64,000 bases of DNA, taken from contig CAYOCD010000001.1 in assembly GCA_964402425.1 (NCBI GenBank), positions 163,442 to 227,441 of the forward strand, written 5' to 3'. How positions within the stretch are numbered: the first letter of the stretch is position 1; each line of letters starts with the position of its first letter. A model generated the notes under the pieces. It was given only the letters and a program-made list of their open reading frames with translations. It was not told where the DNA came from and did no database searches. Of this stretch, positions 52,890 to 64,000 are shown piece by piece. This stretch comes from an uncultured Gammaproteobacteria bacterium. GTDB lineage: Bacteria; Patescibacteriota; Patescibacteriia; UBA9934; GWF2-40-263. Made by a program: the position numbers and the translations under genes.

Positions 52890-53060
52890 AGTGATGAGTT
52901 TAGGCTCGAAGAAAGCCGGATGGCCAAAGGGCCAATAAAGACATTATAAGAAAAATAAAACTCAAATAAATTGAGGTCGACGAATTTCTGAATTTCAGCA
53001 GCGTTTTATGTGGCCAAAAGATATCACGGAGATGGAAAAGCGTCAAGAATATTAAGGAAA

Positions 53061-53094
53061 AGAAAAACCCCAAGTGTTCAGAGAACACTTGGGG
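53061..53094 (-). terminator. Strong rho-independent terminator after the helicase gene
   Basis: Minus strand: ccccaagtgttc-tct-gaacacttgggg (12-bp stem) followed by tttttctttt. Confidence 0.8.
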
Positions 53095-53105
53095 TAAGAA
53101 AACCT

Positions 53106-56100
53106 CTACTGCAGGAGTTGCGTCGGCAATCCAGGGAACATGTTGAGACCGTCTTTGAGAACACGCTCGACATCGACCTTCGTCTTCCCCACCTTGCGAT
53201 AGAGACTGATTTTGGTCGAACCATTCCCGGGAATCACATGACACCACCAGGGTTCGCCTGCATTCGGGTACCGGGACAGATCGTCGCCATAGGGAGCATC
53301 GACAAGCTCGCGCTTGTACTCTGCAACCATGGTTCCGTTGCCGCGATCTCTGAACGTGAGGCAAACAACTTCACCCGATGTCACTTTTCGCTTGAGGTCA
53401 TCAACAAATGCGAGTTCGGCTTCAAGAGCCTTCTTCGCCTCGTCGAGTTCCGCAAGCCAAATTTCAATAAGCTCTTTATCTTCCACAAGTGACCGTGGAA
53501 GCCGGATCACATTTGAACGAACCACAACGCATTCTTCGCGATCAATGCGTTGACGTTCAATACGCGCCGCATTTTCACGCTCCAGCCGTTCAACGATCTC
53601 CGCATATCGCCGCAGTTCATTCGGCGCCGTCGTGAGATCAAACGCGTTCGTGCTATTCACACGCACACACGTAATCTCACGCTGATTACTATCACGGAAT
53701 TCCATCCGCTTTCCGCCCGAGTAATCGAACACGTACCCAAGGGCACGCACACGAGCATCGAGCACGGCGAACTCTTCGCGTAGTGGAGCGAATTCGGCTT
53801 GCGCCTTTTCGCGCGCCTTGCGCGTTTCTTCTTCGCGACGAGCATGCTCTGCGGCCACCTCACGTTCACGCTGCAGTTCTGCCGCGTGTTCCGCTTGGTA
53901 CGCCTTGAGCGCGTCGCCTGTGAGTATATCTTCTGACGTTATGGTGTTCATCGCAGCGACAACGAGTTCAGGTGTGGATTCCGCCACAATCTTTTTCGCA
54001 ATCGCTTTCGTGAACTGATCCACATACGGCTGAATGCGCTTGCGGCGCTCTTCTCCATAAACATACAACGCACTCGTCGGAAAATTCTGCTGCCACAGCT
54101 TTGCGAGCTGCGGTGCATTATTAACGAAAAACCCAAACCCGTCCGAAAGCTGCATTGCAACCAAAGCGGCAATGGACGGAATGAGCGTTTCCGGAATCGT
54201 CTCCAAGGTTTTACGCTCGAGTTCGATTCCGTTCCAGGTGCGACAACAAACGAACATCTCAGCACCGCTCGAGAAAATATTTTCTCGTGCCACACTAACC
54301 ACAGTCTTACACGCTTCCACCGGAACAAGTTCCGACAACCATTTCTCGTCAATCGCATGACATCCGTGCATGTAGGTTTTGGTTCCACGATCGCTCGTGG
54401 TTCCCATTGCCTTCGTGCACACAAGCAATTCCGGCGGATCATCTCCAAACAGCGCAGAGCCGGGAGAGATGAACGTCGTGCGATCGTTCCAGGAATAATT
54501 GAACCGCCCAGACTTCTGAGCGATATTCACAATGAGCCCCGAGGCAACAGCCTTGCGGAGCTTGAGGGAATCTTGCGACGACGAATAGGTAACCCCTTCC
54601 TGCTCGAGCGTGCTCATCAGTTGATCGCGCAAACGATCCACCTGAGTGAGCGCACGAGACGAAAGGAAATTCTCCCTCGCCCACCGATGATCTCCGTCGG
54701 TCCGGTCCCAGTCCCGCCACACCTTGAGAAAAGTGAGCAAGTCCGAGTTCGGATCGTCAAAGCCTTTCTTCGCCCGACGAGCTTCTTCACGCTTGTCCTT
54801 CGGAGCAACGAAGATCGGCCTCGTGCCGGCAAGGCACGCAGCGATCGTGATCACTTCATCGAGACATTCGTGCCGTTCGCCCTCGAGAATCATGCGCCCA
54901 ATCATCGGCTCCACATGGAACCGCTTCATCCGCATGCCATCCTTCGTGACCTCGCCGTCCGCATCGAGCGCACCGAGCAGCTTCAGACGCGTTTCCGCAT
55001 CCTTCCACTGCACAGTCTTCGGTGCATCCATGAGATCTAGGGCGAGAATTTCCGAAAGCGTATACTTCAGGCAGCGCAAATCCAGGAGCACTTGATCGAG
55101 CGACATGCGCAGGATCTCGGGCTTCGTGAACGCCACGCGGCTTTCGAAATCTTCCTGACTGAACAGACGATGGCAGATGCCATCTTGAGTTCGACCCGCC
55201 CGGCCCTTACGCTGATCGCAACCGGCACGAGAGTGCTCGGTGACTTGCAGCGCAGACATCGACGCATCCACGTACACCGTTGCCTTGATCTGTCCAGAGT
55301 CGACCACGTGTCGAACTCCGTCAATCGTGAGCGAGGTTTCCGCGATGTTCGTCGCCACAATGATGCGGCGGCGACCATCCACCTTGAACACTTCTTTCTG
55401 ATCATCCGGCGCCTGCGAGCCGTAAAGCGGCAGGAACCGATAGCGCGACAATTCGCGTTCCTTTTCCTTCTCGAGAGCATTCACGACTTGCGTGATGCTT
55501 GCTTGATCAGGGAGAAACGCAAGAATGTCGCCCGGCTCATTGTTGTGCAAGATCTCGAGAATCTTCTCGATCATTGCCTTGACCATGTCGCCGCTCTCCG
55601 GCGTCTCCTTCGCGTAGCGGACCTCGACCGGGAAAACCCGACCAGGAACCGTGAGCACAGGAGCGTTGCCGAAGTACTTCGAGAACTTCTCCGTATCGAT
55701 CGTGGCCGACATGACCACAACCTTGAGGTCTGCACGCTTCGGGAGCACGCTCTTCACGAGCGCCATGAGAAGGTCTTGATTCACGCCGCGCTCATGCACC
55801 TCGTCGAGGCAGATGACGCTGTAGCGATGAAGAAGCGGATCCGAATGGAGCTGGTTCAGCAGCACACCTTCGGTGATGTACGCGAGTCGCGTTTCATCTC
55901 CGAGCATACGATCCTGTCCAATCTGGTAACCCACCACAGCCCCGAGATCGGTGCCGTAGAGTTCAGACACCCAGTCTGCGAGCATGGTCGCAGCCGGCCG
56001 CCGAGGTTCGGAAACCCCGATTAGCTTGTGGCTACCGAGTCCGGCCCGCAAAAGCGCGAGCGGACCCTTGGTCGACTTTCCCGCGCCGGTTTGGGCGGCG

Positions 56101-56180
56101 AGAATGACAACCTGGTTTTTACGAACAAGGTCGAGAAACTCGGCCTCATATGCATCAAACGGAAGAATGAGTTCAGACAC
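53106..56180 (-). CDS. DEAH/RHA-family ATP-dependent helicase (HrpB/HrpA-like) with an uncharacterised about 440-aa C-terminal extension; visibly GC-rich gene
   Basis: Motif I AQTGAGKST, II LDEVHER, V TNIAETSLTIDGV, VI QRKGRAGR, then HA2/OB-like. The C-terminal half is rich in coiled-coil/charged segments. GC is clearly above flanks by eye. Confidence 0.8.
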   Translation of the reverse strand: MSELILPFDAYEAEFLDLVRKNQVVILAAQTGAGKSTKGPLALLRAGLGSHKLIGVSEPRRPAATMLADWVSELYGTDLGAVVGYQIGQDRMLGDETRLAYITEGVLLNQLHSDPLLHRYSVICLDEVHERGVNQDLLMALVKSVLPKRADLKVVVMSATIDTEKFSKYFGNAPVLTVPGRVFPVEVRYAKETPESGDMVKAMIEKILEILHNNEPGDILAFLPDQASITQVVNALEKEKERELSRYRFLPLYGSQAPDDQKEVFKVDGRRRIIVATNIAETSLTIDGVRHVVDSGQIKATVYVDASMSALQVTEHSRAGCDQRKGRAGRTQDGICHRLFSQEDFESRVAFTKPEILRMSLDQVLLDLRCLKYTLSEILALDLMDAPKTVQWKDAETRLKLLGALDADGEVTKDGMRMKRFHVEPMIGRMILEGERHECLDEVITIAACLAGTRPIFVAPKDKREEARRAKKGFDDPNSDLLTFLKVWRDWDRTDGDHRWARENFLSSRALTQVDRLRDQLMSTLEQEGVTYSSSQDSLKLRKAVASGLIVNIAQKSGRFNYSWNDRTTFISPGSALFGDDPPELLVCTKAMGTTSDRGTKTYMHGCHAIDEKWLSELVPVEACKTVVSVARENIFSSGAEMFVCCRTWNGIELERKTLETIPETLIPSIAALVAMQLSDGFGFFVNNAPQLAKLWQQNFPTSALYVYGEERRKRIQPYVDQFTKAIAKKIVAESTPELVVAAMNTITSEDILTGDALKAYQAEHAAELQREREVAAEHARREEETRKAREKAQAEFAPLREEFAVLDARVRALGYVFDYSGGKRMEFRDSNQREITCVRVNSTNAFDLTTAPNELRRYAEIVERLERENAARIERQRIDREECVVVRSNVIRLPRSLVEDKELIEIWLAELDEAKKALEAELAFVDDLKRKVTSGEVVCLTFRDRGNGTMVAEYKRELVDAPYGDDLSRYPNAGEPWWCHVIPGNGSTKISLYRKVGKTKVDVERVLKDGLNMFPGLPTQLLQ

Positions 56181-56194
56181 GTGTCACCTCTGAT

Positions 56195-56275
56195 TTTGTG
56201 TCATTGCGAGGAGTTCGACGACGAAGCAATCTTAACGAAAAGGTTGCTTCGCTTCGCTCGCAATGACAGTTGCCT
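56195..56275 (-). other. Long (about 75 nt) nested inverted-repeat hairpin in the helicase 5' leader
   Basis: gtcattgcgag...ctcgcaatgac outer 11-bp IR enclosing gaagcaatc...ggttgcttc. Confidence 0.45.
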
Positions 56276-56400
56276 AAAATGGTTCGGTTTTATCGAACAA
56301 TCGTACAAAAACTCAGACGAACTTCGCCTAATTTTTGACGGATAACTATATCACAAAAATGCACTTTTGTCAAGTGTTTACGGGGACTTTTTGTATTTTT

Positions 56401-56430
56401 TCAAACAAAAAACCCGAGAAATTTCTCGAG
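56401..56430 (-). terminator. Terminator downstream of the BtpA-like gene
   Basis: Minus strand: ctcgagaaatttctcggg followed by ttttttg. The stem is a perfect palindrome cgagaaatttctcg. Confidence 0.65.
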
Positions 56431-56435
56431 CAGTA

Positions 56436-57128
56436 TTAATGAGTTTCCCCCATTGCATCCGCAAAAGTGCGAACGCGAGCGGGATTCAGTTCTGTGTGTG
56501 AATCACTGATTCCGGTCGCGACAAGGAAATAGTCGGCGTACGGAAGGAATAAACGAATGTTTTCTGGAGTCATACCGCTTGCAATCGCAAGGGGCTTGTC
56601 CGGAACCGCTTCTTTCATGAGACGAATCTTGTCGACATCCGGAGCCGATCCTGTTCCAGAACCGCTCGTTGTGATGACGTCCACAAATGGTGCGGCGAGC
56701 TTGGCATCCGATGCCGGATCGCCAAACTGTGGTTGATACTTGAATGCGACTCCTCCAAAGAACAATCCTTTCCACCGCTGAGCCGTAGCCTTTTGAATCG
56801 CACGATACCGACGTGCGTTATACGAAGGATCCGCAAGGTCAGCGCGAATATCAACGGAATCAACCCAGATCCCGGAAACATCCGGAGGAACAATCGTAAG
56901 TATTTGTGCCGGTTCAAGACCAAGACAATTCAGTCCGATCCAAGCTCTTGGAAACAACCTGCGTATCTGACAAAAAATAGTCAGAAGTTGCTGTGATGTG
57001 ATTGAGTGATTGATGAGAAAAATTCCATGTGCACCATTCTCAAACGCAACATGCACATTGCGCAAAGCTTGCGCGGAATATTCCACATGGATGACGGGAA
57101 GAAATGCGCGCTTCGGAAGATGAAACAT
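56436..57128 (-). CDS. BtpA/SgcQ-family TIM-barrel protein (tentative)
   Basis: LPVIHVEY...GAHGIFLINH N-terminus and ITTSGSGTGSAPDVDKIRLMKEAV...AIASGMTPENI resemble BtpA family motifs. Start at MFHLPKRAF. Confidence 0.5.
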   Translation of the reverse strand: MFHLPKRAFLPVIHVEYSAQALRNVHVAFENGAHGIFLINHSITSQQLLTIFCQIRRLFPRAWIGLNCLGLEPAQILTIVPPDVSGIWVDSVDIRADLADPSYNARRYRAIQKATAQRWKGLFFGGVAFKYQPQFGDPASDAKLAAPFVDVITTSGSGTGSAPDVDKIRLMKEAVPDKPLAIASGMTPENIRLFLPYADYFLVATGISDSHTELNPARVRTFADAMGETH

Positions 57129-57206
57129 GGAACACCTCAACAAAATGAACTAAAGAAACGTTAGCGAAAAAACATGATTACGTCAACATTTCTTCCCAAT
57201 AAAAAA

Positions 57207-57245
57207 CATCTCCGTTACGTGGAGATGTTTTTATTTTTTGTATCA
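57207..57245 (-). terminator. Bidirectional terminator
   Basis: aaaaaac-atctccg-ttacg-tggagat-gtttttatttttt. Confidence 0.7.
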
Positions 57246-57264
57246 ATAGAACGGACATCTTTTT

Positions 57265-57948
57265 TTACAACGAAGAAAATAACAATCCTTGATACGCCGC
57301 GCAGCTTGCGCCGGATAATGCGTCACAAATGGCGTATGCAGGAGTTGAAATAAAAAAGAACACATTGAAATTTGTGAGGAGCGCAACAAAAACGGCAAAC
57401 ATCAAAATTTGTGGACCACGAACCGCAACAAAACTTCTGAGCTTTTCATGTTTTGGTGCATCAAAAAGGGCAAAAAATAATTTTGAGCCATCAAGTGGAT
57501 GAATTGGAATCACGTTGAAAAGCGCCAAAAATAAATTTAACAGAGTCAGAAAAAACAGAAAAGCTGTGAGTAAGCTGTACGGAGACAACCCGCCATTCAC
57601 AACCAACAATCGAAACGCAATAGAAGAAATAGTTGCGATGGTGAGATTTGAAACAGGCCCCGCAAGCGCAATCATGACAGAATCCCACTTAGGATTTTTT
57701 AAATTGTATGGATTAAACGGAACTGGTTTTGCCCAACCAAATCCAAATAACAAAAGTGGAATAAATCCAAACAGATCCACGTGTGCAAGCGGATTCAATG
57801 TTAATCGCCCTTCACGTTCTGCGGTTTGATCCCCTTTCCATTTTCCGACAAGCGCATGCGAAAATTCATGAACCGTAAGCGAAATTAAAATAGCGATCGT
57901 CCAAGCAAACGCAAGAGGGGGTGAAGAAAAAAGTAAAGTAAGAAACAT
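57265..57948 (-). CDS. Site-2 protease family zinc metalloprotease (M50)
   Basis: HEFSHAL zinc motif in a TM helix, LDGSKL second motif, polytopic. Confidence 0.85.
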   Translation of the reverse strand: MFLTLLFSSPPLAFAWTIAILISLTVHEFSHALVGKWKGDQTAEREGRLTLNPLAHVDLFGFIPLLLFGFGWAKPVPFNPYNLKNPKWDSVMIALAGPVSNLTIATISSIAFRLLVVNGGLSPYSLLTAFLFFLTLLNLFLALFNVIPIHPLDGSKLFFALFDAPKHEKLRSFVAVRGPQILMFAVFVALLTNFNVFFFISTPAYAICDALSGASCAAYQGLLFSSL

Positions 57949-57951
57949 AAT

Positions 57952-59250
57952 CTAAACACGTTTAATTTGAGCACCTACACCACGAAGTTTCTCTTCCAGA
58001 TTTTCATATCCTCGATCAAGATGTTCGATTCCTGTCAGAGTTGATGTTCCGTCCGCAATAAGCGCAGCAACTACGAACGCGAGTCCTGCACGAATATCTG
58101 GAACTTCAACTTCTGCGGCACGCAATTTTGACGGACCATTGATGACAGCCGAATGTTTGTAATTCATCCCTTTAAATCGACAAGTAATTTCTCCGAGGCA
58201 ATTTGAAAACAATGCGATGTCTGCTCCCATTTTTTTAAGAGCTTCTGTGTATCCAAAACGTTCTTCATAAACCGTTTCATGTACGACACTCGTTCCTTCC
58301 GCTTGTGTAAGCACTGTCACAAATGGCTGTTGCCAGTCTGTCATAAATCCCGGATGTGTATCTGTCTCAAGTTCGATTCCTTTGAGTGGTCGTGTTCCGC
58401 GAAACAAAATTCCGTTTTGTTTCACTTCATATTCCCCGCCAATTCTACGCACAGCATTCAGAAACGTCATCATGTGTGCATGCTCCGCACCACGAACAAG
58501 AATCTCCCCACGTGTTCCAATCGCCATCGATGCATAGGACGCCGCTTCCATACGATCCGGCATAATTGTGACCTCTGTGCCACGCAATTTTTCCACACCA
58601 AAAATTTCAATCCATCGTCCAGAATTAATTTGAATGATCGCCCCCATGTTTTGCAGCATCATGATCAATTGTTTCACTTCAGGTTCTCCAGCCGCATTAC
58701 GAATCGTCGTTCGACCTTCTGCAAGCACACTGGCGAGAATAGCTGTTTCTGTTGCCCCGACGGAAGGATAAGCGAGTTCAATCAACGTTCCTTTTAATCG
58801 TTTTGGAACGGTTGCGTGATAACCGTTTTCTGTTTCAACGATTTGCGCCCCCATCTTTGAGAGAATTTCAATGTGAAAATTGACCGGACGTGGTCCAATA
58901 GCATCTCCTCCAACTCGAGGCACAAAGGCTTCTCCCGCACGATGCAAAAGAGGTGCAAGGGCCAAAATACTAATACGATTTTTTCGTGAAAGCGAAGTTG
59001 CGTTTGTAGAGCTGATTGATGATGTTGTCACACAAACTTCGTTTGGACTTCGCCAGTCAACCTTTGCGCCGACCGCTTCAATAATTTCTTGCGTGATTTG
59101 TGTTTCTTGTTGGCGCGGAACATTTTTGAGCACAACAGGTTCATCTGTGAGCAATGATGCGATCAGCATTTTTGATGCAGCATTTTTTGCTCCAGAGACA
59201 GCAATCTCTCCAACAAGTGGCTTCCCGCCCATGATTTGAAAAACAGACAT
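57952..59250 (-). CDS. murA: UDP-N-acetylglucosamine 1-carboxyvinyltransferase
   Basis: 432 aa EPSP-synthase fold; SGAKNAA N-terminal motif, catalytic Cys-region loop. Confidence 0.95.
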   Translation of the reverse strand: MSVFQIMGGKPLVGEIAVSGAKNAASKMLIASLLTDEPVVLKNVPRQQETQITQEIIEAVGAKVDWRSPNEVCVTTSSISSTNATSLSRKNRISILALAPLLHRAGEAFVPRVGGDAIGPRPVNFHIEILSKMGAQIVETENGYHATVPKRLKGTLIELAYPSVGATETAILASVLAEGRTTIRNAAGEPEVKQLIMMLQNMGAIIQINSGRWIEIFGVEKLRGTEVTIMPDRMEAASYASMAIGTRGEILVRGAEHAHMMTFLNAVRRIGGEYEVKQNGILFRGTRPLKGIELETDTHPGFMTDWQQPFVTVLTQAEGTSVVHETVYEERFGYTEALKKMGADIALFSNCLGEITCRFKGMNYKHSAVINGPSKLRAAEVEVPDIRAGLAFVVAALIADGTSTLTGIEHLDRGYENLEEKLRGVGAQIKRV

Positions 59251-59257
59251 AAAAAAA

Positions 59258-59557
59258 TTAATGAAGTGTTAAAGGCCCTCGTTTATTTCCAAAATCTTGT
59301 GCAATCTTTCGGATTATTCGATTCGTTTCTTTGAGCGCTTCACGTGCAGCCGTAAGATCTATTTCCATTTTGTGAACATCTTCCCACCCAGCCTCTGGAT
59401 CCGCCTGTGCAACAACGAGTTCTTTTGTACGTTCATCAATTTGTTTTCCAAGATACTCACGTTGTTCTTCAAGTGTAAGCAATTGACGATCGCCAAACAT
59501 GGCGAGGGCTTCTACACCAGTCATGGGTGGGACATAAGGAAGTTTTTCTCGTTCCAT
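59258..59557 (-). CDS. Hypothetical 99-aa protein
   Basis: No motifs; 1-nt spacing to the upstream gene suggests co-translation. Confidence 0.45.
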   Translation of the reverse strand: MEREKLPYVPPMTGVEALAMFGDRQLLTLEEQREYLGKQIDERTKELVVAQADPEAGWEDVHKMEIDLTAAREALKETNRIIRKIAQDFGNKRGPLTLH

Positions 59558-59558
59558 A

Positions 59559-59972
59559 TTATTTATTTACAAATTCTTCAAACGCTTTTTCATCATCAAA
59601 CGGCAAAAAATCTTTGTGATGTTCTGGTGGTTTAAACCCATCATATTTTTTATTCCTGATGCCACACCAATATTTTTCTGTTTCTCCGGCAATCGCACCT
59701 GCATAACGAAACCATCCGTTTGCATATCCGCAGTAAGCACATCCAATTTTTTCATACCACGTGAGATACGAAAGCTTGTGTCGATCCATGCGAATAAAAT
59801 CTTTTCGTTGAAGACGAGAAATCCCCATCAAGCGAAATCCGATCTGATGATAAAATTCAAGAGAGATATCAAACAGAACAAGTGGAATGAACTGAAAGAA
59901 GACAAGGGGTGTATAGAAAGTAAATCGAAACTTCATTCTTGGTCGATGATTCAAAATCTGACGATATTTCAT
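59559..59972 (-). CDS. Hypothetical membrane-associated protein with CAYCGY...YWCG cysteine motifs
   Basis: Start taken at MKYRQIL; the track's longer start at 60023 runs into the divergent nrtR promoter region. Confidence 0.45.
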   Translation of the reverse strand: MKYRQILNHRPRMKFRFTFYTPLVFFQFIPLVLFDISLEFYHQIGFRLMGISRLQRKDFIRMDRHKLSYLTWYEKIGCAYCGYANGWFRYAGAIAGETEKYWCGIRNKKYDGFKPPEHHKDFLPFDDEKAFEEFVNK

Positions 59973-60074
59973 ACATATACAGTTAACGCACACAGTATAC
60001 GTCTCCTCCCTGCTTTTTTCCACACGTCTATGAGATAGATAAACTTGACGTTACAGATATTCTCTGATACTTTG

Positions 60075-60089
60075 TGTGTAATTTACACA
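60075..60089 (+). promoter_or_regulatory. 15-bp palindrome TGTGTAATTTACACA 8-22 nt upstream of the nrtR start codon (candidate operator)
   Basis: Perfect 7-1-7 palindrome preceded by a TTGACG -35-like hexamer about 30 nt upstream. Confidence 0.4.
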
Positions 60090-60096
60090 AACAGAT

Positions 60097-60756
60097 ATGT
60101 CCCAACAAAAAATCATCGTTGCTGTTGATACGGTCATCTTTACCGTTCATGATGACGAACTCTGCGTACTCCTCATTCAAATGAAAAAAACACCGTACAC
60201 AGGACTCTGGGCCTTCCCTGGCGGTCGAGTCGAAAATACTGAAACGACAGAACAAACCGCAATTCGTATTTTAAAAGAACAAACCGGTGTTTCAAACGTT
60301 TACCTTGAACAACTCAAAACCTTTGATTCTATTGAGCGAGATCAGCTGGAGCGTGTCATCTCCGTTGCCTCCTTTGCCCTTATCTCCTCATCAGATATTC
60401 ATCTCACAACAACCGACAAATACGCAGACGTAAAGTGGTGGCCGATCAAAAAGCTTCCAGAATTAGCCTACGACCACAAATATATCGCCAAAGAAGCGAT
60501 CGTTCGATTAAAAAGCCGGCTTCAGTACACAAACATCGCCTGGAGTCTGCTTACCGACGAGTTTACCCTCACAGACTTACAGCGTATTTACGAAATTATT
60601 CTTGATACCACCATAGATAAACGTAACTTCCGTAAGCGAATCCTCGCCCTCGACCTCATCTCCTCCGTCGGCAAGAAACGTGGCGGCGAAGCAAACCGCC
60701 CAGCAGAGCTTTACAAGTTCAAGCACAAAAAGCTTGAATATGTGGAGATTATGTAG
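60097..60756 (+). CDS. nrtR: NrtR-type regulator: Nudix (ADP-ribose-binding) domain fused to a C-terminal winged-helix DNA-binding domain
   Basis: Nudix box GGRVENTETTEQTAIRILKEQTG (degenerate GX5EX7REUXEEXGU) and a C-terminal NFRKRILALDLISSVGKKRGGEANRPAELYKF typical of NrtR wHTH. Confidence 0.75.
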   Translation: MSQQKIIVAVDTVIFTVHDDELCVLLIQMKKTPYTGLWAFPGGRVENTETTEQTAIRILKEQTGVSNVYLEQLKTFDSIERDQLERVISVASFALISSSDIHLTTTDKYADVKWWPIKKLPELAYDHKYIAKEAIVRLKSRLQYTNIAWSLLTDEFTLTDLQRIYEIILDTTIDKRNFRKRILALDLISSVGKKRGGEANRPAELYKFKHKKLEYVEIM

Positions 60757-60905
60757 GGAAAGGGCGGAAGTGGCAGAGAGGGCAGAAAAGGCGGAAAGGA
60801 ACGAAAGAAACAAGAGCCAATTTGGCTCTTTTTTGTTCACGCTTTCCACCCCATCCCTTTCCGCCCATTCCGCCTTTTCAGCCTTTTCCGCCCTTTTTCA
60901 TTACG
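60757..60905. repeat. About 150-nt imperfect inverted repeat (purine-rich GGCGGAAAGG-type arm / pyrimidine-rich CCTTTCCGCC-type arm) centred on a perfect intrinsic terminator (about 60811-60836)
   Basis: Left arm gggaaagggcggaag...ggcggaaagg. Centre aagagccaa-tttggctct-tttttt. Right arm ctttccacc...ccgccttttcagccttttccgccc. Plus ORF 60680..60910 and minus ORF 60577..60849 here are spurious. Confidence 0.6.
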
Positions 60906-60914
60906 TTTGACATA

Positions 60915-60939
60915 AGTAAGTGTCTATATTACACTTACT
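60915..60939 (+). promoter_or_regulatory. 25-bp palindrome AGTAAGTGT-n7-ACACTTACT overlapping TTGACA / TATAAT-like hexamers upstream of pncA (candidate operator)
   Basis: 9-bp perfect arms. TTGACA at about 60907 and TATAAT at about 60939 are 26 nt apart, so the promoter assignment is uncertain. Confidence 0.4.
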
Positions 60940-61122
60940 ATAATTTAAAGGACATTTCAAACAAAAAACACCTAAGAAAAACCATTGACATTTTGCGCAA
61001 AATTGGATATTCTTCCCCGTCCTAAGGTGGTGTTTTTCAATGAATACATCTGCGGAAAACACAGGGTTTCCCGCAGATGCCGTTCGTTGAACGTCCCCAT
61101 GGTGGGGATTGAGGTGAGAGCC

Positions 61123-61881
61123 ATGTTGAATGATGAAGGTTTGATTCAGATCGGAAAGGGTGATGCGGTCATCGTCGTCGATGCCACGGGAGCATTCGGT
61201 CCGGACGGCGGACTGCCCGTGCCCGGCGCCCTTGAGATCATCAAGGTCATTCGAGAACTCGTCTTGAAGTTCAAGCGCCGTCAGCGCTTCAACGTCTTTG
61301 ATGCGCACCCAAGAGGTCACATCAACTATCGCACCTCCTACGTGAAGCGGGCCCGTGGTCCGCTCAACATCACGGAAGTTCTGGGCAATAAGATCAAGAT
61401 TGCGAGTCATGCACTCTTCACCCGCGAAGATTTGATCGCCTACCTCATGCGTCTGAATCGGCACGAAACACTCCTCTGGGACGAACATGCCGAAATGACC
61501 ACAAGCGAGATTCGTCTCTTCGACGGTCTGCGCGATCTCGAAGACGCATTCGTCCTTCACTTCCCGAAGGGCACGGATCCAAAAATCGACAGCTACAGTG
61601 CGTTTCGCGATACGCTTTGGATGCCGACCGGTCTTGGTCGCATTCTAAAAGAACGTGGCATCAAACGTGTATTCATCGTCGGTCTTGCGTTCGACTTCTG
61701 CGTTGGCTTCACAGCTGAAGACGCCGCGCTCGAAGGTTTCGAGTCCTACATCGTCCGCGACGGTACACGCTCTGTCGGCCTTCCCGCCGAAGGTGACTAC
61801 CCCGGTTCGATTGCCTTCATGGAAGCGCGTCTCATCGCTCGCGGTGTAAAGTGCATCAACTCGAATCAGATCCAAGCCTAA
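61123..61881 (+). CDS. pncA: Nicotinamidase / pyrazinamidase (isochorismatase-like cysteine hydrolase)
   Basis: VIVVDATGAFGPDGGLPVPGA (D...G), IVGLAFDFCVGFTAEDAALEGF (catalytic Cys). Start at MLNDEG with SD gaggtgag 8 nt upstream; the track ORF begins at 60985. GC-rich. Confidence 0.8.
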   Translation: MLNDEGLIQIGKGDAVIVVDATGAFGPDGGLPVPGALEIIKVIRELVLKFKRRQRFNVFDAHPRGHINYRTSYVKRARGPLNITEVLGNKIKIASHALFTREDLIAYLMRLNRHETLLWDEHAEMTTSEIRLFDGLRDLEDAFVLHFPKGTDPKIDSYSAFRDTLWMPTGLGRILKERGIKRVFIVGLAFDFCVGFTAEDAALEGFESYIVRDGTRSVGLPAEGDYPGSIAFMEARLIARGVKCINSNQIQA

Positions 61882-61947
61882 TTCACTCGCTCTTTTAGCC
61901 CCCCTCGCTCTTCATCTCGAAGGGCCCTTTTCTTAAGCACCTCAACC

Positions 61948-61990
61948 AGTGGGATGCTTCAATCAAAGGTTCGGAACAAGCAGGAGGTCG
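61948..61990 (+). promoter_or_regulatory. Conserved 5'-UTR motif copy 1 (TGGGAYGCTTCAATCAAARGYTCRGAACA...AGGAG) immediately upstream of nadD
   Basis: agtgggatgcttcaatcaaaggttcggaacaagcaggaggtcg followed by the TTG start. Contains the gttcggaac palindrome. Confidence 0.55.
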
Positions 61991-61991
61991 T

Positions 61992-62627
61992 TTGAAAGAA
62001 GAATGCAACGAACAAAAACCACGGACAATCCTCTACAGCGGGAGTTTTGATCCTCCGGGATATCACAACACAGCAACAGCAAAAGCTCTCGCAGATTTTG
62101 CATCGGAAAATGACGTCGTTTGGATTCTTCCTTACGGAGGTCGTCCGAAAAAAAACGGAATCTCGAAATGGCAGGATCGCAGAGAGATGATTCTCCGTGC
62201 GCTGTGTGGATCCAAAAAAACCATTCTGGATTTCATGGATCTCAAACACAGAGAAATGACACCGAACATTGATATGGACCGACGCTTTCGAGACAGACAG
62301 CCGAACCGTGAGGTGTGGCATGTAATCGGAGCGAATATGATTGTGGGTGGAGCAAAGAAACAGTCGAAGATTCATCAGAGGTGGAAAGAGGGACCTTGGG
62401 TCTTTGACCACTTGAACTTCATTATTCTTGTAACACCAAATTCACCAATCAACAAAGAAGACCTTCCTCCGCGCCACAATATCCTGAGAGTGAACACTCA
62501 AGGGACAAGTCAGGAAATTCGGAATCGGGTATCGCGCGGCGAACCGATCGATCATCTTGTTCCTTCGAACGTACTTTCGTACATTCAGGAACACAAACTG
62601 TACTTTCCCAACTCTGCAGAGACCTAA
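61992..62627 (+). CDS. nadD: Nicotinate/nicotinamide mononucleotide adenylyltransferase (NadD-like), TTG start
   Basis: ILYSGSFDPPGYHN (nucleotidyltransferase (H/T)xGH-type motif) and C-terminal SQEIRNRVSRGEPIDHLVPSNVLSYIQEHKLY (ISSTxIR-like). SD caggagg 4 nt before TTG. Confidence 0.75.
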   Translation: MKEECNEQKPRTILYSGSFDPPGYHNTATAKALADFASENDVVWILPYGGRPKKNGISKWQDRREMILRALCGSKKTILDFMDLKHREMTPNIDMDRRFRDRQPNREVWHVIGANMIVGGAKKQSKIHQRWKEGPWVFDHLNFIILVTPNSPINKEDLPPRHNILRVNTQGTSQEIRNRVSRGEPIDHLVPSNVLSYIQEHKLYFPNSAET

Positions 62628-62661
62628 AAAAATCTCTGCCTTTTTCTCAAGCGCCCCAAAT

Positions 62662-62704
62662 GCTGGGACGCTTCAATCAAAAGCTCAGAACACAAGGAGA
62701 CTCG
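62662..62704 (+). promoter_or_regulatory. Conserved 5'-UTR motif copy 2 immediately upstream of the first LOG/SLOG-like gene
   Basis: gctgggacgcttcaatcaaaagctcagaacacaaggagactcg followed by ATG. About 75% identical to copy 1 over 43 nt, with an identical 12-nt core GCTTCAATCAAA. A terminator-like hairpin gcagaga...tctctgc overlaps the nadD stop just upstream. Confidence 0.55.
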
Positions 62705-63478
62705 ATGTCTATCATCATTCCTTCCCTGTTCATAAAGAACCAAGGAGATCAGTCAGTGAAGATCGCTCTGAAGCTGACGACCGCTCGGCAACGAGTTGTT
62801 GTACGGATCACGGGTGGATGCGGATATATGTCTGACGAAGACACGCAAGATTTTCTCTCGCTCTTCGCGGAAGCGTTCTCTGGTTTTGCGGGCGCCATGC
62901 TCTTTGGTGGCACACGCATGATCGAGAAAGAAAACGCTTCAAGAATTGTCCCCGGGATCACCGAGATTCCGTCGCACATTCGCGAGCGTTGTCCAGAAAT
63001 GGTTTCGCTTGGAGTCGTTCCAAGAACCTCTGACATTAAAATCACAGAACACGGACTCGTGGTTTCGGAGAGTGATGAGGATGCGTATCGCACCATCATT
63101 CATCCAAGCCAAGACATGTGCCTGCTGGTTCAAGTGTCTCCGGATCAACCGGCCATTTGGGATGCCGAGTTCGAAGAGTGCCTTCAGATCACGCGCGACC
63201 TGCGCGAGTTCGCGGAGTTCAAGTCACTACTCGTTGTTTACAACGGTGGTGGCGTGACCGAACGCGAACTTCTTGCAACAGCAAAACAGGGCTGGCCGAT
63301 TCTGCTCATCAAGGGCAGCGGCCGCATCGCGGATGCGTACGCAGCGAACACGAAGTTCCTTGCCGCACACCCAAATGTTCGCGTCGCAGAAAAAGATTCT
63401 GACGACATCAGGCAACATCTCATTTCATTCGGGATGCTTCCCCCGGAGAAACTGCGTCTCGTGAAATCACGGGCGTAG
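62705..63478 (+). CDS. Rossmann-like protein with LOG/SLOG-like glycine motifs (paralog A), function unknown
   Basis: RITGGCGYM (compare GGGxxGxM) and LFGGTRMIE (compare PGGxGTxEE). Start at MSIIIPS with SD aaggag 6 nt upstream; the track ORF begins at 62660 inside the UTR motif. Confidence 0.55.
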   Translation: MSIIIPSLFIKNQGDQSVKIALKLTTARQRVVVRITGGCGYMSDEDTQDFLSLFAEAFSGFAGAMLFGGTRMIEKENASRIVPGITEIPSHIRERCPEMVSLGVVPRTSDIKITEHGLVVSESDEDAYRTIIHPSQDMCLLVQVSPDQPAIWDAEFEECLQITRDLREFAEFKSLLVVYNGGGVTERELLATAKQGWPILLIKGSGRIADAYAANTKFLAAHPNVRVAEKDSDDIRQHLISFGMLPPEKLRLVKSRA

Positions 63479-63503
63479 AAAATCAGGAAGTACGTTGGTG
63501 ATC

Positions 63504-64000
63504 ATGACAACGACAGCCAGAACCGTAACAGGGGCAGGTGGGAAAACTTACCTGCTTATCCAAGACAAGCGTGATCAAATCCCCACAACGTTCGCCCTCA
63601 TGGCAACGCGTGCGGGAGAGAAAGTATGTTTGCGCATCAGTGGCGGATGCAAAGGAATGGATGGTGATGATAAGCGTGCCATGATCGGCTTTTTCCTGAT
63701 GGCCCTCGAAGGCTTCAAGGGAATGATCTGGTCGGGTGGCACACGTCAGTTCGACAAAGACATCGTTCTTGACCCCATGGTCACGGACATTCCCGGTTTC
63801 ATCGCAGCCTCAAATCCCGAATGTGTTGCACTCGGCTCCGCTCCGCGTACGGACGTCTTGCGCCTCACGGGCGAATCACATCTGATGCTCGACGATTACG
63901 GCACCGCGCCGAATCCGGCCATGAATGCAATTCTGCTTGTGCAGGATGGTGCGGAAGGCAAACTCGACTGGGACGGCGATCTGAATGCCGCCTTCGAACT
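63504..64000 (+). CDS. Paralog B of the LOG/SLOG-like Rossmann protein (3' end beyond window)
   Basis: Manual translation MTTTARTVTGAGGKTYLLIQDK...RISGGCKGMDGDD...IWSGGTRQFDKD...LLVQDGAEGKLDWDGD aligns with paralog A (RITGGCGYMSDED...LFGGTRMIE...LLVQVSPDQPAIWDAE). Confidence 0.55.
   Translation, partial: MTTTARTVTGAGGKTYLLIQDKRDQIPTTFALMATRAGEKVCLRISGGCKGMDGDDKRAMIGFFLMALEGFKGMIWSGGTRQFDKDIVLDPMVTDIPGFIAASNPECVALGSAPRTDVLRLTGESHLMLDDYGTAPNPAMNAILLVQDGAEGKLDWDGDLNAAFE

Follow-up and report, generated by a model that had tools for sequence, protein, structure and literature searches.

A tandem pair of TRPM-type SLOG genes within an NrtR-linked NAD salvage operon of Patescibacteria

The 64,000-nt stretch of contig CAYOCD010000001.1 analysed here (the window) ends within an NrtR-repressed operon for the Preiss-Handler salvage of nicotinamide adenine dinucleotide (NAD), which also contains extra genes. 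Two of these, designated slogA and slogB, are tandem paralogs whose products are Rossmannoid proteins of the SLOG superfamily, of the TRPM type (LSDAT). Comparison with other genomes showed that the two genes travel together and recur beside NAD genes, and both the identity of the pair and its link to NAD are held with high confidence. What the proteins do is proposed more cautiously: they may form a two-subunit enzyme that acts on a nucleotide derived from NAD. Judged from its closest named relatives, the host genome belongs to Candidatus Uhrbacteria, within the Patescibacteria or Candidate Phyla Radiation (CPR).

The operon and its continuation beyond the window

According to the open reading frame listing and domain scans, five co-directional genes lie between position 60097 and the window end (Table 1). 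An earlier note on this DNA had taken them for an NrtR-linked NAD salvage cassette, and in agreement with it the regulator, pncA and the NadD-like gene were all matched by Pfam or NCBIfam models. The note had also expected pncB and nadE past the window end. Both are present on a public contig of 14.7 kb (locus L001), which agrees with the window at all 7797 nt from 56204 to 64000 and then continues for another 6.9 kb. On this contig, slogB is followed in order by pncB, a Nudix gene, a radical SAM gene and nadE, and finally by a convergent ATP-grasp gene. The order of the nine-gene operon is nrtR and then pncA-nadD-slogA-slogB-pncB-nudix-radical SAM-nadE.

The Preiss-Handler set is complete, as the PncA, PncB, NadD and NadE families are all encoded. 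The corresponding steps lead from nicotinamide to nicotinate (PncA), nicotinate mononucleotide (NaMN; PncB), nicotinate adenine dinucleotide (NaAD; NadD) and NAD (NadE). NadE is of the glutamine-dependent form (PF02540 and PF00795) and passed its equivalog cutoff (710 bits against 473), and the matches of PncA, PncB and NadD were all below theirs. The best NCBIfam match of PncA was the PRK11609 nicotinamidase (77 bits, below cutoff), and its motifs are VVD, FDAHPRGH, KG...DSYSAF and GLAFDFCV. The NadD-like protein scored 68 bits against TIGR00482, under the cutoff of 112, and PncB is a nicotinate phosphoribosyltransferase (PF04095 and PF17767). Besides these enzymes, the operon encodes the NrtR-type repressor and a Nudix protein of 193 aa resembling ADP-ribose pyrophosphatases (ADPRases), with YffH/AdpP-type and E. 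coli ADP-ribose pyrophosphatases as its best relatives.

Table 1. Genes and other features at the end of the window
Feature	Position	Strand	Description
NrtR box 1, TTTGTGT-GTAATTT-ACACAAA	60071..60091	.	perfect 21-bp palindrome, 7/7 arm pairs, GT-N7-AC
nrtR, 219 aa	60097..60756	+	Nudix-like effector domain PF00293 (60 bits) and NrtR winged-helix PF21906 (83 bits)
Large imperfect inverted repeat, 41-nt arms	60759..60896	.	between nrtR and pncA; one copy in window
Operon promoter TTGACA-17-TACACT (60907-60935) with NrtR box 2	60907..60937	+	5' of pncA
NrtR box 2, TAAGTGT-CTATATT-ACACTTA	60917..60937		overlaps operon promoter; 7/7 arm pairs, GT-N7-AC
Second promoter-like site TTGACA-17-TATTCT (60985-61013), then structured leader	60985..61107	+	5' of pncA ribosome-binding site
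pncA, nicotinamidase, 252 aa	61123..61881	+	isochorismatase family PF00857, 48.9 bits
55-nt spacer element, copy 1	61924..61978	.	5' of nadD; 78% identical to copy 2
nadD, standalone NadD-like nicotinate-nucleotide adenylyltransferase, 211 aa	61992..62627	+	PF01467, TIGR00482
55-nt spacer element, copy 2	62638..62692	.	5' of slogA
slogA, A-type TRPM-type SLOG (LSDAT_prok), 257 aa	62705..63478	+	
slogB, B-type, cut by window end	63504..64000	+	full protein 257-259 aa, end at window-equivalent 64277

Family, fold and conserved residues of SlogA and SlogB

SlogA and SlogB are 33% identical to each other (E 3e-24), so that the earlier description of two tandem co-directional paralogs holds. Both matched the Pfam model PF18171, LSDAT_prok ('SLOG in TRPM, prokaryote'), at 33.2 bits for SlogA and 39.4 bits for full-length SlogB, with a gathering score of 25.4; the 165-aa fragment of SlogB inside the window gave no match to this model when taken alone. 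Such low scores (33-39 bits) indicate a divergent subfamily. The TRPM-type SLOG domains were reportedly defined by Burroughs et al. in 2015 in Nucleic Acids Research, with LSDAT_prok as the prokaryotic branch. AlphaFold models of the two proteins (predicted local distance difference test, pLDDT, 93 and 96) showed the three layers of a Rossmannoid fold, in which strand 1 leads into a Gly-rich loop, and an extra lobe like that of TRPM MHR1/2. The other structural relatives, after those of TRPM type, were the Moco carrier protein, DprA and the SLOG domain of ThsA. At the sequence level, the C-terminal 98 aa of SlogA alone matched the TRPM2 chanzyme (E 0.005), in an alignment that places VVYNGGGVTERE...GSGRIAD against IVVQGGPGTLGT...GSGLAAD.

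SlogA carries the motifs RITGGCGYM, FGGTRM, GITEIP, HPSQD, YNGGGVTERE and GSGR; those of SlogB are RISGGCKGM and SGGTRQ within the window and WNGGDITRDE and GSGRAAD beyond it. In alignments of 50 homologs per paralog, R-x-(T/S)GGC-x-x-M, GGTR, NGG-x-x-T-x-x-E and GSGR were invariant in both paralogs, and about 20 polar residues were invariant in each. The invariant residues, in SlogA numbering, include R34, T36, C39, R71, E87, H133, Q136, D147, E155, E188 and R207.

The earlier note had described the paralogs as LOG/SLOG-like. The SLOG half of this description is borne out by the PF18171 matches above the gathering score. Membership of the LOG family was rejected: neither protein matched PF03641 (LOG) at E <= 0.1, and the position of the LOG catalytic Arg is not conserved. 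The motif GGTRxxE/D, which had been read as LOG-type, is not the relevant one either. The LOG motif, which we take to be PGGxGTxxE with the catalytic Glu, has its likely counterpart in the C-terminal half, as NGGGVTERE in SlogA and NGGDITRDE in SlogB. Here Gly-Gly, Thr and the last Glu do not vary, and Asn stands in place of the LOG Pro. This equivalence, based on topology and on an alignment to the QGGPGTLGT of TRPM2, would put the LOG-type Glu at E188 in SlogA and E193 in SlogB; TRPM2 has no Glu there. The catalytic Arg of LOG enzymes presumably lies about 23 residues upstream of the Glu, in an MHxRK helix. The corresponding position (about R167 in SlogA, mapped by offset and not by superposition) is occupied by R, K, L, V, Q, S or N. 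The invariant Arg of GSGR falls, by offset from two marginal alignments, on R358 of human TRPM2, a residue that contacts two phosphates of ADP-ribose (PMC6759353). Taken together, the invariant motifs, the LOG-type Glu and the GSGR Arg suggest that each subunit has what appears to be a complete pocket for a phosphorylated ribonucleotide.

In common with LSDAT_prok in general, the pair has the NGG..T and GSGR motifs and a Rossmannoid core whose first strand is followed by a Gly-rich loop, but the slogA/slogB subfamily is an obligate tandem, A then B, which in Patescibacteria is embedded in NrtR/NAD salvage operons. With TRPM2 MHR1/2 (LSDAT_euk, the orthosteric ADP-ribose site) it shares GSGR(x)AD and the alignment of the Arg that binds the ADP-ribose phosphates with the invariant Arg. 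In addition, TRPM2 combines a SLOG and a Nudix ADPRase-like domain in one protein, and the operon contains them as separate genes. In contrast to TRPM2, SlogA and SlogB are standalone, soluble proteins with no channel, occur as two paralogs and keep the LOG-type Glu, and their sequence identity to TRPM MHR1/2 is only 13-19%. The differences from LOG/PpnN (YgdH; PF03641) go beyond the missing PF03641 match, the change from Pro to Asn and the variable Arg position; the two proteins also carry an extra beta-rich lobe of about 45 residues and would form a heteromeric pair. LOG enzymes are homodimers or hexamers.

An ancient gene pair

Pattern scans provided 31 loci from species-representative genomes and 65 from metagenomes, and the operon proteins were mapped onto all of them by tblastn. 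Of the 88 loci whose downstream sequence was long enough, 86 have the order A then B. The set includes Patescibacteria (Uhr-, Falkow-, Adler-, Collier- and Saccharibacteria, and others), Melainabacteria/Obscuribacterales, Bdellovibrionota, a Planktothrix bin and an Aenigmatarchaeota bin. First genes are closer to A and second genes closer to B, which means that the duplication is older than these lineages. The comparison shows that the pair is ancient and that its two genes nearly always occur together. In several lineages the slogA stop codon and the slogB start codon overlap. This overlap and the conserved order fit two subunits of one complex, and SlogA and SlogB probably form a hetero-oligomer. 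The family is rare, with 312 clusters detected by a profile search among 1.84 billion cluster representatives.

Departures from the usual architecture were also observed. A few homologs of 640-840 aa (L034:6597-8714 P0259; P0250, P0264, P0292, P0321, P0337) carry the SLOG domain at the C-terminus, after an N-terminal region of 400-550 aa with no clear Pfam domain and one weak GNAT match, which offers no hint of function. At L034, a Bdellovibrionota locus, a divergent second SLOG gene on the opposite strand replaces the B-type partner. Elsewhere, in a 425-aa open reading frame (L078:2783-4060), the N-terminal ~180 residues of an A-type SLOG are joined to a complete NrtR, which may reflect either a true fusion or an artefact of assembly or deletion.

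Recurrent association with NAD genes

A locus was classed as Patescibacteria-type when its A protein was at least 46% identical, and it was counted if it had at least 3 kb of flank. NAD genes (nrtR, pncA, pncB, nadD or nadE) adjoin the pair in 17 of 33 such loci, which represent about 12 separate lineages with differing gene orders; the earlier expectation that the paralogs would recur in NAD contexts of relatives was therefore correct. The arrangements include nrtR-pncA-A-B-nadD::nadK-pncB-nudix-rSAM-nadE (rSAM, radical SAM), nadD::nadK-x-A-B-pncB-nadE, nadD-pncB-A-B, A-B-nadD::nadK-nudix-pncB-His_Phos-nadE, A-B-pncB-rSAM-..-nadE, pncA-A-B, nrtR-A-B and A-B-nrtR. In L007, L008, L040 and L052, pncA stands immediately 5' of slogA, and in L017, L050 and L068 nrtR is the sole adjoining NAD gene. 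Below 46% identity, an NAD gene was nearby in 1 of the 34 loci with enough flank, namely L017 from Adlerbacteria, which lies just under the cut-off.

Some further features of these and similar operons were recorded. The uncharacterised radical SAM protein (L001:10256-11203) is widespread in Patescibacteria, and related regions were located at L105:7174-8954, L106:7180-8945, L056:11478-12290 and L045:2931-3776. A His_Phos_1 phosphatase precedes the radical SAM gene in two inspected CPR NAD salvage operons without the pair, and is also found in two NrtR-linked loci with it. ADP-ribosylglycohydrolase and phosphoribosyl pyrophosphate (PRPP) synthase also occur in such CPR NAD contexts. The NAD operon of a Komeilibacteria genome contains, 5' of pncA, a second isochorismatase-like gene of 349 aa (L105:714-1763) with the motifs CLMPIDCQNTF and AGQAKSHCV.

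Enzyme or ligand binder

The step absent from the operon is the release of nicotinamide from a pyridine nucleotide, or some other handling of nicotinamide mononucleotide (NMN) or ADP-ribose. A SLOG protein that has a LOG-like Glu and is often encoded directly after pncA suggests a phosphoribohydrolase, and on these grounds the pair may be catalytic, acting on NMN, or on ADP-ribose or adenosine monophosphate (AMP); this is the mechanism that we favour, although we give catalysis a little under an even chance. In the proposed mechanism, the pocket of each subunit of the heteromer would bind an NAD-derived 5-phosphoribosyl nucleotide, either NMN or ADP-ribose, and SlogA and SlogB would hydrolyse its N-glycosidic bond in the manner of LOG enzymes. 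The reaction would release nicotinamide, which PncA could use, and/or ribose 5-phosphate, which could feed PRPP and PncB. A recycling loop would thereby be closed, running from NAD to NMN or ADP-ribose, and on through nicotinamide, nicotinate, NaMN and NaAD back to NAD, while ADP-ribose would lift NrtR repression of the whole gene set. The NMN/NaMN N-glycosidase activity put forward in the earlier note is plausible, but that the substrate is specifically NMN is rather unlikely. Equally doubtful is the wider proposal of a heteromeric enzyme, of a kind not characterised before, cleaving NMN (or ADP-ribose/NaMN) in which TRPM2 MHR1/2 descends from a bacterial NAD-recycling enzyme that stood beside a Nudix ADPRase.

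Several observations weigh against an NAD-recycling enzyme. The closest structural relatives, TRPM MHR1/2 and the SLOG domain of ThsA, are ligand sensors and not enzymes. The LOG model gave no match, the LOG catalytic-Arg position varies, and every database name for members of the family is 'hypothetical protein'. About half of the Patescibacteria-type loci have no nearby NAD gene and unrelated neighbours, and no NAD gene was found near the pair in any Melainabacteria, Bdellovibrionota or cyanobacterial locus. NrtR-type boxes are not enriched 5' of slogA (1 locus in 26.7 kb, below background). The pair is thus not specific to NAD regulons: this ancient two-gene module also occurs by itself, with only unrelated genes around it. 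Finally, CPR NAD operons without the SLOG pair exist, which makes it accessory and not a core step. In short, the pair is an accessory module with a strong and repeated link to NAD/ADP-ribose metabolism.

The two proteins might instead bind ADP-ribose or another NAD metabolite without cleaving it, by analogy with TRPM2 MHR1/2, the ThsA SLOG domain and the Moco carrier protein. As a sensor, allosteric regulator, buffer or carrier, they could adjust the activity of the salvage enzymes or tie up a metabolite that is scarce or toxic. This is the main rival and a serious one, though on balance the less likely reading. It would account for the position of the GSGR Arg on R358 of human TRPM2 and for the lack of conservation at the catalytic Arg position, and it suits an operon that already has a putatively ADP-ribose-responsive regulator and an ADP-ribose pyrophosphatase-like Nudix protein, two components that make ADP-ribose a shared currency. 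However, in most of the 312 representative clusters the proteins stand alone, at about 260 aa, and lack an effector domain. Both paralogs keep the LOG-type Glu without exception, TRPM2 lacks it, and such a large number of invariant polar residues would better suit an active site.

If the pair is catalytic, as we favour, its substrate need not be a pyridine nucleotide. A general nucleotide 5'-monophosphate N-glycosidase of the LOG/PpnN type, converting for instance AMP to adenine and ribose 5-phosphate, would supply ribose 5-phosphate/PRPP and bases to a genome of reduced metabolism. Its sole connection with NAD would be that PncB needs PRPP and that the Nudix protein releases AMP. The retained LOG Glu, the occurrence of the pair outside NAD contexts and the presence of a PRPP synthase near the pair in one locus, and within a related CPR NAD operon, are consistent with this activity. 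We nevertheless consider it improbable: PF03641 is not matched, the TRPM-type inserted lobe would create a deeper, bi-lobed pocket than that of LOG, and adjacency to pncA, or to nrtR alone (L017, L050, L068), favours a pyridine or ADP-ribose ligand over AMP.

A role apart from NAD salvage would also explain why the genomic context differs between lineages. Many SLOG families function in conflict systems (PMC9503650), and Ser/Thr kinases are neighbours of the pair in Melainabacteria; slogA and slogB could accordingly be a nucleotide-signalling or anti-phage conflict module, or have an unrelated function and stand beside NAD genes through operon shuffling in small genomes. This is very improbable. 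No PADLOC model was matched by SlogA or SlogB, so that membership of a defence system such as Thoeris (ThsA) was rejected, and a scan of 130 neighbour proteins showed no TIR, SIR2, SLATT or other effector, with TIR and SIR2 missing from their 25 commonest Pfam families. Moreover, linkage to NAD genes in about 12 lineages, in different orders, compares with roughly 3% of loci expected by chance within 7 kb, a rough estimate for a genome of about 0.8 Mb. As for the kinases, one or two large Ser/Thr kinase genes adjoin the pair in the Melainabacteria/Obscuribacterales loci L019, L020 and L029.

Predicted regulation by NrtR and a structured leader

The regulator combines the two domains expected of an NrtR-type Nudix-winged-helix protein, PF00293 and PF21906, as the earlier note had proposed. 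It reached 144 bits against the NCBIfam equivalog NF050029, whose cutoff is 400; it is a member of the NrtR family, but not this equivalog specifically. Read from the sequence, its Nudix box is degenerate (RILKEQ in place of REUxEE), as expected of a repressor that binds its ligand without hydrolysing it. Most NrtR operators are 21-bp palindromes with a GT-N7-AC core, and ADP-ribose releases characterised NrtRs from DNA (PMC2330246). By analogy with these, ADP-ribose may be the inducer in the window as well.

Two canonical boxes were found, one on the nrtR promoter and the other on the pncA promoter. Box 1 covers the nrtR promoter (TTGACG 60045-60050) in part, at -10/+1, a placement that implies autoregulation, and its sequence is unchanged in L007 and L008. 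In the same relatives, box 2 keeps its arms, and its 7-nt centre is variable. On the basis of these two boxes and their retention, NrtR is predicted to repress both its own gene and the NAD operon. A third perfect palindrome (CAAGTGT-N7-ACACTTG, 53071-53091) was rejected as an NrtR box, as it is the stem of the intrinsic terminator of a 1024-aa gene on the minus strand (53106-56180). A relaxed palindrome scan of the loci gave lineage-specific candidates only, for example ATAGTGT-N7-ACACTAA before nrtR in L068.

Downstream of the second promoter-like site, the pncA leader contains a long hairpin (~61036-61091) and a CCCC/GGGG hairpin (~61095-61107). A strongly structured 5' leader is conserved in three sequences (window 61014-61125, L007:6997-7106 and L008:6990-7098), and it is a candidate for an RNA that regulates the NAD operon in cis. 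An Rfam E-value scan of the operon identified no family for the leader and no NAD+ riboswitch, and returned only spurious miRNA-hairpin matches to the inverted repeat.

The standalone nadD, the inverted repeat and the origin of the operon

In the relatives, a nadD::nadK fusion is located 3' of slogB, and no standalone nadD separates pncA from slogA. The standalone nadD was inserted between these two genes in this lineage. Fusions of the adenylyltransferase with NAD kinase were found at L007:9664-11046, L008:9714-11096, L010:6126-7505, L056:7667-9121 and L084:1538-2923. Their His motif is GGSFxPPGxHH, and the standalone NadD of the window has an unusual PPGYHN. The two copies of the 55-nt spacer element, one on either side of nadD, both match the one spacer that lies between pncA and slogA in L007 and L008. 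The element forms a small hairpin, in which compensatory changes among four sequences were seen at three pairs.

The earlier note had placed the inverted repeat at the upstream boundary of the cassette and had suggested acquisition as a unit, and neither suggestion was upheld. The repeat sits inside the cassette, between nrtR and pncA, where it encloses the intrinsic terminator of nrtR (hairpin 60812-60830 and a T-run); as RNA, its folding energy is -76.8 kcal/mol (z = -8.6). Neither of the two closest relatives, L007 and L008, carries the repeat, and both have a plain terminator in its place; it is an elaboration specific to this genome. Its single copy in the window, its internal position and its absence from relatives led to its rejection as the boundary of a mobile element. 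Since two other Uhrbacteria genomes, L007 and L008, show synteny for the upstream flanking genes BtpA-M50-MurA-hyp99(-hyp89), with hyp89 detected only in L007, there is no sign of recent acquisition as a unit. The block is GC-rich, as had been claimed (0.50-0.51 for the cassette against a window mean of 0.44, sd 0.033), and an old foreign origin of the operon is possible. Another GC-rich stretch of the window (53000-56200, 0.50-0.58) coincides with the minus-strand open reading frame of 1024 aa.

Relation to described systems and significance

The SLOG superfamily, LSDAT_prok, the use of a SLOG domain by TRPM2 to bind ADP-ribose and NrtR regulons are already known. CPR genomes did not yet exist in 2008. 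The operon resembles the NrtR regulons described in that year in having a Nudix and winged-helix repressor, 21-bp GT-N7-AC operators on its own and the pncA promoters, and pncA, pncB, nadD and nadE as targets, and differs from them in adding the SLOG pair, the ADPRase-like Nudix and the radical SAM protein (Rodionov et al., 2008; PMC2330246). A word search of that paper found neither 'hypothetical' nor 'radical'. Literature searches found no description of prokaryotic LSDAT gene contexts and no experimental work on members of the family; in the literature on NMN nucleosidase, they found mention of the activity and no gene assignment. With Burroughs et al. (2015) left out of the comparison, both the obligate A/B pair in NrtR-controlled CPR NAD operons and its parallel with the domain pair of TRPM2 (SLOG and Nudix ADPRase) appear to be undescribed.

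NAD supply matters in CPR bacteria because their metabolism is reduced, and the operon and its repeated occurrence in relatives mark out an accessory module of CPR NAD salvage that can be put to the test. As two small soluble proteins, SlogA and SlogB are tractable for co-expression, ligand screening and crystallography. If they act as proposed, the pair might supply a gene for NMN nucleosidase, a long-known step in the cycling of pyridine nucleotides. In conclusion, the pair offers the clearest metabolic context found for the prokaryotic relatives of TRPM MHR1/2, and a role centred on ADP-ribose or NAD, if true, would link bacterial NAD recycling with the origin of ADP-ribose gating in TRPM2.

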